Notes under the pieces: model-generated
What the model saw: only the letters and a program-made list of their open reading frames with translations
What the model was told of the DNA's origin: nothing
Databases searched by the model: none
Part shown: positions 3,729 through 5,778 of the stretch, piece by piece
Position numbering within the stretch: the stretch's first letter is position 1
Layout: the number at the start of each line of letters is the position of its first letter
Program-made: the position numbers and the translations under genes
From: Candidatus Odinarchaeia archaeon
Lineage (GTDB): Archaea > Asgardarchaeota > Odinarchaeia > Odinarchaeales > Odinarchaeaceae
Direction of reading: 5' to 3'
Assembly: GCA_029856525.1 (NCBI GenBank)
Contig: JAHQXC010000044.1
Location: forward strand, 1 to 10,858
DNA length: 10,858 bases

Positions 3729-3805
3729 TGGTGGGCGGGGAGAGTTTTGAACTCTCGACCTCCGCGCTGTCAACGCGGCATCATAACCAACTAGACTACC
3801 CGCCC
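3729..3805 (-). tRNA. tRNA-Val(GAC), intron-less, CCA encoded
   Basis: Minus strand reads GGGCGGG-TA-GTCTAGTTGGTTATGAT-G-CCGCG-TT[GAC]AG-CGCGG-AGGTC-GAGAG-TTCAAAA-CTCTC-CCCGCCC-A-CCA. Acceptor, anticodon and T stems pair fully. Confidence 0.97.
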
Positions 3806-3862
3806 GTGAATAATAGATAACACTTATTTAATAAAAGGCTGGTGCGGCTGCCGGGATTTGAA

Positions 3863-3890
3863 TTCCCGACTTAACGGTTAACGCTAAGTT
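3863..3890 (-). other. tRNA-Gly intron 2, non-canonical 53/54 position (T arm), 28 nt
   Basis: Sequence A-ACTTAGCG-TTAAC-CGTTAAGT-CGGG-AA. 8-bp hairpin with one G-U pair; perfect central helix CCCG/CGGG; bulges GGA and AAT; short outer helix GA/TC. Confidence 0.9.
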
Positions 3891-3905
3891 CCCGGGTCGC
3901 AAGCG

Positions 3906-3934
3906 CTCCGAATCTAATACGATAGTATTAGATA
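3906..3934 (-). other. tRNA-Gly intron 1, canonical 37/38 position, 29 nt
   Basis: Sequence T-ATCTAATAC-TATC-GTATTAGAT-TCGG-AG. Perfect 9-bp hairpin; central helix CTGC/TCGG pairs 3 of 4; 3-nt bulges CAT and AGC. Confidence 0.92.
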
Positions 3935-4003
3935 TGGCAGGCTCGCGTCCTAATCCAAACTAGACTACAGCCGCATAGCTACAATGCTAATATATGATAC
4001 ATA

Positions 4004-4017
4004 TTTTTAAATTTTAC
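4004..4017 (-). promoter_or_regulatory. BRE-TATA promoter of tRNA-Gly
   Basis: The minus strand reads GTAAAA-TTTAAAAA, ending 29 nt before the mature tRNA 5' end. Confidence 0.65.
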
Positions 4018-4025
4018 CTATAAAA

Positions 4026-4128
4026 TGGTGGACCGGGCGAGATTTGAACTCGCGGCTTGCGGTGTTTAAATCTATTAAATACATCTCCGCCATGCCAAGG
4101 CGGCGATCTTCCGCTGATCTACCGGCCC
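4026..4128 (-). tRNA. tRNA-Ala(GGC) with one variable-loop intron, CCA encoded
   Basis: GGGCCGG/CCGGTCC acceptor with the G3-U70 Ala identity pair; D stem GATC/GATC; anticodon arm CCGCC-TT[GGC]AT-GGCGG; T arm GCGAG-TTCAAAT-CTCGC. Length is 75 nt after removing 28 nt. Confidence 0.96.
4057..4084 (-). other. tRNA-Ala intron, non-canonical 45/46 position, 28 nt
   Basis: Sequence A-TGTATTTAATAGATTTAAACA-CCGC-AA. Imperfect AT-rich hairpin; perfect central helix GCGG/CCGC; bulges AGA and AAG. Removal restores a 5-nt variable loop, AGGCC. Confidence 0.88.
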
Positions 4129-4778: not shown

Positions 4779-5288
4779 ATGGAGGTTAAAAACAGACATT
4801 ATTTAAGCTCTAAAGATATTAAAAAGCTAAAAGAGGAGATAGTTAAAGCGTACCCTCATCTAGAAAGCGCGCTCGATTTGAAGAATTCAACGGTTGAAGC
4901 CATCACTTTAAATGAAGGCGTTAAACTATATGTTGTCAACAATAAACTCGATTGGATAATAATAAAAGATAGGCTAATACCGTCTATAAGTCTTCTTAAC
5001 AGAGGATTAGAAATACCATTTATAACAGTTGACATGGGTGCTATTCCATTCATCACAAAGGGGGCTGATGTTATGCGCCCTGGAATAGTAGGCTACTCTG
5101 ATAAAATATCGAAAGGCGGCATAGTTAAAATAATAGATGAAAGATACAGTAAGACAATAGCTGTAGGGGAGAGTTTAATCTCCTACGAGGAGTTTAAAAT
5201 AAAAAAGCAGGGTAAGGCTATCAGAGTTCTACACCACGTCGGTGATAAAATATGGAGTATAGCAAACTCCTTAAACATTCAACAATAG
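4779..5288 (+). CDS. Pre-PUA (DUF1947-like) + PUA domain RNA-binding protein, MCTS1/Tma20-like
   Basis: RHYLSSKDIKKL N-terminus; TVDMGAIPFITKGADVMRPGIV PUA motif; HHVGDKIW C-terminus. Confidence 0.9.
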   Translation: MEVKNRHYLSSKDIKKLKEEIVKAYPHLESALDLKNSTVEAITLNEGVKLYVVNNKLDWIIIKDRLIPSISLLNRGLEIPFITVDMGAIPFITKGADVMRPGIVGYSDKISKGGIVKIIDERYSKTIAVGESLISYEEFKIKKQGKAIRVLHHVGDKIWSIANSLNIQQ

Positions 5289-5349: not shown

Positions 5350-5778
5350 TTGGGGTTATTAAATAAGATTTTTAGAAGAAGGAAAAAAATCGGGGAGGAG
5401 TCTTTAAGCACGGAGACGACTACAGTGAACGAAGAGGATGTCGACTTCATAGAGGAATGTAACACAGAGTTGAAAACGAGTGGAGAAGAGGAGAAACTGG
5501 TTGTAAACGAGCGTTATCTTAAAGTTATCCACTTATATGGTTTAACAGATGTGGAAGAAGTTCGAAACGAACTGGAGTCCGGGAATATAGTGATCGCGGA
5601 TATAACAGCGCTGAAAAAAGACGGAGGCGGCTCAATAGAATTAAAACGAACAGTTGAACAGATGAAAGGAGTGGTGAAAGTTAAAAACGGGGATATAGCC
5701 CAGCTATCAGACCGATATATTATTATAACACCGCCAGGGGTTAAGATTTGGAGAAGAGTTGAAGAGCTGAAAACATAA
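5350..5778 (+). CDS. sepF: Cell division protein SepF (archaeal type)
   Basis: N-terminal amphipathic helix MGLLNKIF plus basic RRRKK, an acidic linker, and the core ELESGNIVIADIT...GDIAQL...IIITPPGVKIWR. TTG start after GAGAGGA. Confidence 0.85.
   Translation: MGLLNKIFRRRKKIGEESLSTETTTVNEEDVDFIEECNTELKTSGEEEKLVVNERYLKVIHLYGLTDVEEVRNELESGNIVIADITALKKDGGGSIELKRTVEQMKGVVKVKNGDIAQLSDRYIIITPPGVKIWRRVEELKT

Follow-up and report, generated by a model that had tools for sequence, protein, structure and literature searches.

Three introns of 28–29 nt, two in the tRNA-Gly(GCC) gene and one in the tRNA-Ala(GGC) gene of an Odinarchaeum genome, are probably ordinary archaeal tRNA introns of the bulge-helix-bulge (BHB) type that differ in age and belong to an intron-rich genome; their common layout would be imposed by the splicing enzyme, while their almost identical length would reflect the modal length class together with chance. 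Comparison at the sequence level confirms that all three introns are real. The pattern they display is that of the known splice motif, and both the introns and the endonuclease type of this lineage have already been described, so that it has little significance as originally stated. A modest by-product is a curated catalogue of 64 Odinarchaeum introns, whose non-canonical members show an upper edge at 30 nt that can be tested.

The tRNA genes and their introns

The whole stretch of DNA analysed (10,858 nt, hereafter the window) contains a minus-strand run of three adjacent tRNA genes and, on the plus strand, two protein genes that are informative about the host:

3732–3805, minus strand: tRNA-Val(GAC), the intron-less neighbour
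3843–3974, minus strand: tRNA-Gly(GCC) gene with two introns (Rfam RF00005 match; spliced 75-nt cloverleaf)
3863–3890, minus strand: Gly(GCC) intron of 28 nt at 53/54 in the T arm, with an 8-bp hairpin
3891–3905, minus strand: Gly(GCC) middle exon of 15 nt (tRNA positions 38–53)
3906–3934, minus strand: Gly(GCC) intron of 29 nt at the canonical site 37/38, with a relaxed BHB and a 9-bp intron hairpin
4029–4128, minus strand: tRNA-Ala(GGC) gene with one intron (Rfam match; spliced 72-nt cloverleaf)
4057–4084, minus strand: Ala(GGC) intron of 28 nt at 45/46 in the variable loop, with an AT-rich hairpin
4779–5288, plus strand: PUA-domain protein
5350–5778, plus strand: SepF (Pfam PF04472, E 4e-15)

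An Asgard host had been guessed, and SepF noticed, from the letters alone, and both proved right. The PUA-domain protein is 83% identical to its counterpart in Ca. Odinarchaeota J65_bin.29, with the next match at 38–43% identity, and the region is 84–89% identical to three genomes of the same genus, which places the host in Odinarchaeum. A sigma-70 promoter scan was uninformative for an archaeon. The CCA of tRNA-Gly(GCC) is encoded (3840–3842), and the tRNA-Val(GAC) counterpart in the sister family has two introns.

Removal of the introns leaves a 75-nt Gly and a 72-nt Ala cloverleaf similar to those encoded by two intron-less genes of this genome, Gly(TCC) and Ala(CGC). All three introns consist of 1 nt, a hairpin, and 4 nt, with AG, AA, and AA as the final bases, and their free parts are unrelated (local scores of 8–11 vs. 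best pairs near 19 in shuffled sets). The central helix is complete (4/4 pairs) in Gly 53/54 (3896–3893 with 3868–3865) and in Ala 45/46 (4090–4087 with 4062–4059), where imposing the BHB motif costs about 1 kcal/mol. Thus, the shared layout, the lengths, and the unrelated interiors reported by the sequence-only reading stand, but its four-base guide is imperfect in Gly 37/38, which forms 3/4 pairs (3940–3937 with 3911–3908) and carries a C35·U mismatch retained in 4/4 Odinarchaeum genomes; here, the imposed motif lies about 6 kcal/mol above the MFE. Other splice registers for Gly 37/38 gave no better helix, and the orthologues favor 37/38. A hairpin is indeed present in each intron; that of Ala is only marginal (−0.6 kcal/mol, z −0.2), and that of Gly 53/54 shows one compensatory change across four species. 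Within the four close genomes compared, 93% of the cells in the BHB pairing are paired vs. 25–38% in slid registers, but with only one two-sided change.

Splice motif and splicing enzymes

In archaea, the splice motif has a 3-nt bulge on either side of a 4-bp helix, and a cut is made in each bulge (PMC4090602). Seen from the intron side, the BHB motif is 1 nt, a hairpin, four exon-complementary bases, and 2 nt, that is, the very blueprint that had been taken as a sign of a common gain mechanism. Since every spliceable archaeal intron must form this motif, the blueprint is not evidence for such a mechanism, and the same layout recurs in nearly all introns of the genome.

For the genome-wide view, tRNA genes were catalogued by means of our own parser and a search of our own for acceptor stems, followed by curation by hand, because many genes, Gly(GCC) among them, had been overlooked or wrongly called by ARAGORN and by Rfam at the genome level. 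The catalogue comprises 41 tRNA genes, 33 of them intron-bearing, with 64 introns of 12–62 nt (median 23.5) from a 93%-complete genome in which five isoacceptors were not recovered; the boundaries are uncertain by 1–2 nt in a few cases (Phe, the Leu variable arm, the D-loop). The central helix forms 4/4 pairs in 48 and 3/4 pairs in 15 of the 64 introns, the penultimate base is A in 58/64, and the first base is A in 46/64. Given these helices and the penultimate A, the layout is a requirement of the enzyme and is silent on how the introns arrived.

In the precursor, four exon bases would pair with four bases near the 3′ end of the intron, leaving two 3-nt bulges (two exon nucleotides plus the first intron nucleotide, and the last two intron nucleotides plus the next exon nucleotide) closed by the intron hairpin. 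As suggested by the motif and by the enzyme residues, an (αβ)2 EndA, whose catalytic subunit bears the crenarchaeal-specific loop, would cut both bulges, relaxed and non-canonical sites included, and RtcB would ligate the exons. The common layout would then be imposed by the enzyme, whereas the common length would come from a modal class of 28–30 nt within a broad distribution, plus chance.

The genome encodes two EndA paralogues in separate genes (contigs C56 and C61). The C56 protein (188 aa) aligns end-to-end with EndA of A. pernix (E 6e-44) and has the lysine of the crenarchaeal-specific loop (K44) together with the triad Y126/H134/K165. The triad assignment is the one we take to hold for the A. 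pernix enzyme, and the His-to-Ala change in chain 3ajv_B agrees with it. The C61 protein (187 aa) lacks both the loop and the His. By its residues, EndA is thus of the broad-specificity (αβ)2 type, the loop K44 and the Tyr-His-Lys triad being present only in α. It resembles the Aeropyrum pernix enzyme with the CSL/L1 loop (PDB 3P1Z/3AJV), where the same loop Lys44 and triad are found and the second subunit likewise appears to be without both the loop and the His. LCB_4 was among the genomes whose tRNAs Kaneta et al. (2018) surveyed, and that study described the Asgard EndA as (αβ)2 with the L1 loop (PMC5829648). The match to human SEN2/SEN34 is far weaker (E 1e-5 to 1e-8), and therefore the locus adds nothing specific on the origin of TSEN, for which its endonuclease had been thought relevant.

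The ligase gene is also interrupted, in this case by an intein with a LAGLIDADG domain:

contig C95:1–1314, minus strand: rtcB (tRNA splicing ligase) with an intein (locus L164), truncated at the contig end and full-length in congeners

rtcB is also split in genomes G003 and G005 and uninterrupted in G001 and G002.

The trio agrees with the archaeal BHB tRNA introns surveyed by Marck and Grosjean (2003), as presented in PMC4090602, in the 4-bp central helix, the two 3-nt bulges, and the existence of relaxed forms. The sites 37/38, 45/46, and 53/54 are all among the archaeal intron positions listed there; the lengths lie within the reported 11–129 nt, slightly over the usual medians of 12–25 nt, and in these respects the trio does not differ qualitatively. 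Catalogues of tRNA introns in Asgard archaea appeared in 2024 and 2026 (PMC11291895; bioRxiv 10.64898/2026.10.13.758758). Together with the LCB_4 tRNAs in PMC5829648, this means that the lineage was largely covered by existing catalogues, although the main text of the census preprint does not name Odinarchaeia. The 2026 census reports Asgard median lengths of 22–23 nt, introns enriched at BHB boundaries, and no general route of arrival (bioRxiv 10.64898/2026.10.13.758758). The Odinarchaeum genome shares with the intron-rich Asgard genes of both catalogues the interruption of most genes, several introns per gene, and BHB boundaries; it likewise has a similar median, no copying across tRNA types, and two EndA paralogues, but its 1.56 introns per gene remain below the 2.2 of the focal families.

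Intron lengths, ages, and origin

A single size for the genome is not borne out by the catalogue, where lengths are scattered: 28 nt is the single most frequent length (8/64), yet introns of 28–29 nt make up only 12/64 and those of 28–30 nt 19/64. A random trio of introns spans no more than 1 nt with a chance of 1.5%; at least one such length-matched trio among the 11 neighboring trios is expected with a probability of about 16%, and the remaining neighboring trios span 4–21 nt. The length match is thus not clearly beyond chance. Moreover, length is not constant among orthologous introns (Val(TAC), 20 vs. 25 nt; Lys(TTT) 46/47, 26–29 nt).

The three introns also differ in phylogenetic depth, and it is therefore unlikely that they stem from one event. 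Ala 45/46 occupies the same site with 27–28 nt in 7/7 Odinarchaeales genomes examined; its central helix is retained across two families, while its interior is unrelated in the sister family. Gly 37/38 has a 27-nt counterpart in the sister family, whereas Gly 53/54 occurs only in the four Odinarchaeum genomes and is absent from the sister-family genes examined. Introns of the relatives were parsed automatically, with some errors. A 20-nt intron at 53/54 of Gly(TCC), present in G003 only (locus L115, G003:C104), is a candidate recent gain.

The best surviving alternative is that BHB introns of Odinarchaeales, whether in tRNA or in protein-coding genes, originate with a length of about 28–30 nt or are kept close to it, which we regard as possible but unlikely. 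Introns would be born at about 28–32 nt by one insertion route, or capped near 30 nt by selection on the folding and splicing of the precursor, and then mostly eroded by deletion, the trio being uneroded; we put little weight on this scheme either. The 43 non-canonical introns span 14–30 nt, with 15/43 at 28–30, and the four introns longer than 30 nt are all at 37/38. The pile-up has P 0.005 against a uniform distribution and P 0.02 for none above 30 nt under a normal fit, while a skew test is not significant. A similar pile-up at 27–31 nt is seen in the automatic parses of relatives, including sites absent from this genome (11/18 in G005), and Ala 45/46 keeps its length across two families despite the unrelated interior. 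On the other hand, the pattern was noticed post hoc, 28/43 of the non-canonical introns are shorter, and the canonical ones reach 62 nt. The sole species-restricted intron, that of Gly(TCC) in G003, is 20 nt long, and simple erosion does not fit the old Ala 45/46 intron, which is still 28 nt. In the published set of Atabeyarchaeia-1, 58 introns (transcribed) span 13–69 nt with 22 above 30 nt; hence, there is no Asgard-wide cap, and the end of the Odinarchaeum non-canonical introns at 30 nt differs from that genome.

Protein genes bear on the same question. A scan for BHB-shaped mRNA inserts of 18–60 nt without a length prior gave three strong single-hairpin, frame-joining inserts of 29 nt and one of 32 nt in kae1:

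contig C23:3669–3697, minus strand: 29-nt insert in an amidase-family gene (locus L162; Pfam 2–153 and 156–445 across the break)
contig C123:4019–4047, plus strand: 29-nt insert in gcvPA (Pfam 9–99 and 101–426 across the break)
contig C124:8175–8203, minus strand: 29-nt insert in a radical SAM gene (partial Pfam coverage)
contig C27:13284–13315, minus strand: 32-nt insert in kae1 (Pfam continuity)

A first scan was too loose (96 matches vs. 63–75 in controls), and only homology-checked matches were used. The amidase insert is 28–30 nt long in three congeners, with differing frames and one compensatory pair change; that of kae1 is 28 and 25 nt in relatives, and kae1 is uninterrupted in two other Asgard genomes. 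However, the scan is biased to long hairpins, and shifted-geometry controls gave similar total counts. A preferred size, if true, would be a footprint left by the arrival route of archaeal introns, and it could serve as a direct filter for recent insertions and for mRNA introns that have gone unnoticed. The 2026 Asgard census names the arrival of archaeal intron DNA as the central open problem (bioRxiv 10.64898/2026.10.13.758758); if introns do have a birth size, fewer mechanisms would come into question.

Far less probable is a transposition of the Thermoproteales style, in which the copying of introns across tRNA genes would account for the C·U mismatch as well as for the shared size, given that the Gly 37/38 guide, read directly, would pair 4/4 with a YUGA exon such as that of Phe or Ile. 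Pairwise comparison within the catalogue found no intron families across tRNA types above the shuffled null (the best pair scored 18; the null averaged about 19), which leaves transposition unsupported. Helices of 3/4 are common in the catalogue, and Gly 37/38 in the sister family likewise forms 3/4 pairs, with the mismatch at a different position. Cross-type families amount to 1.5% in the Asgard census vs. 28% in Thermoproteales (bioRxiv 10.64898/2026.10.13.758758). The multi-intron tRNAs of Thermoproteales, as outlined by Sugahara (2008) and Fujishima (2010), share with Odinarchaeum the high intron load, the non-canonical sites, and the (αβ)2 enzyme, but in Thermoproteales, families of similar introns turn up in different tRNA types, and none does so in the Odinarchaeum genome. 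Judged by intron sequences, copying between tRNA genes appears largely refuted. Finally, one mechanism yielding fixed 28–29-nt introns throughout the genome is almost certainly wrong: 28 nt being the commonest length speaks for it, and the catalogue's 12/64 and its 12–62-nt range refute it.

Ordinary BHB introns of different ages thus remain the preferred reading. Two further candidates were tried and rejected. A TTAA shared by intron loops (19/51 vs. 9 expected from shuffles) is 1.6-fold enriched genome-wide and is not kept in orthologous loops, and a derivation of intron arms from their own host tRNA was unsupported in a crude test (mean rank 0.43, P 0.06).

Other peculiarities of the tRNA set

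A tRNA-Ile gene with the anticodon UAU has three introns (contig C78:6166–6310, minus strand); a TiaS domain was not found in five Odinarchaeales genomes, including a closed one. tRNA-His (contig C11:23502–23630, minus strand) apparently contains two abutting 37/38 introns of 21 and 13 nt, where the helix partner of the second is the guide of the first, implying ordered splicing, and the same holds for Val(CAC) on contig C18.

The initiator tRNA-Met gene (contig C11:9853–10010, plus strand; locus L140) has four introns of 26, 14, 17, and 27 nt, a first acceptor pair A1·A72, and no CCA after it; typical archaeal initiators differ in both the pair and the CCA. In G002, the tRNA-Cys(GCA) gene (G002:C1:1305850–1305921) differs from the Cys gene of this genome and resembles that of the sister family; with a second tRNA match of 71 nt (G002:C1:183515–183585), G002 possibly has two Cys genes.

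In tRNA-Tyr (contig C71:10389–10534, minus strand), the 49-nt intron holds a second copy of exon positions 38–43, which is kept in G002 and G003. tRNA-Trp (contig C71:2730–2895, plus strand) combines a 30-nt intron at 43/44 with a 62-nt intron at 37/38, and the latter equals the known box C/D guide intron in size.
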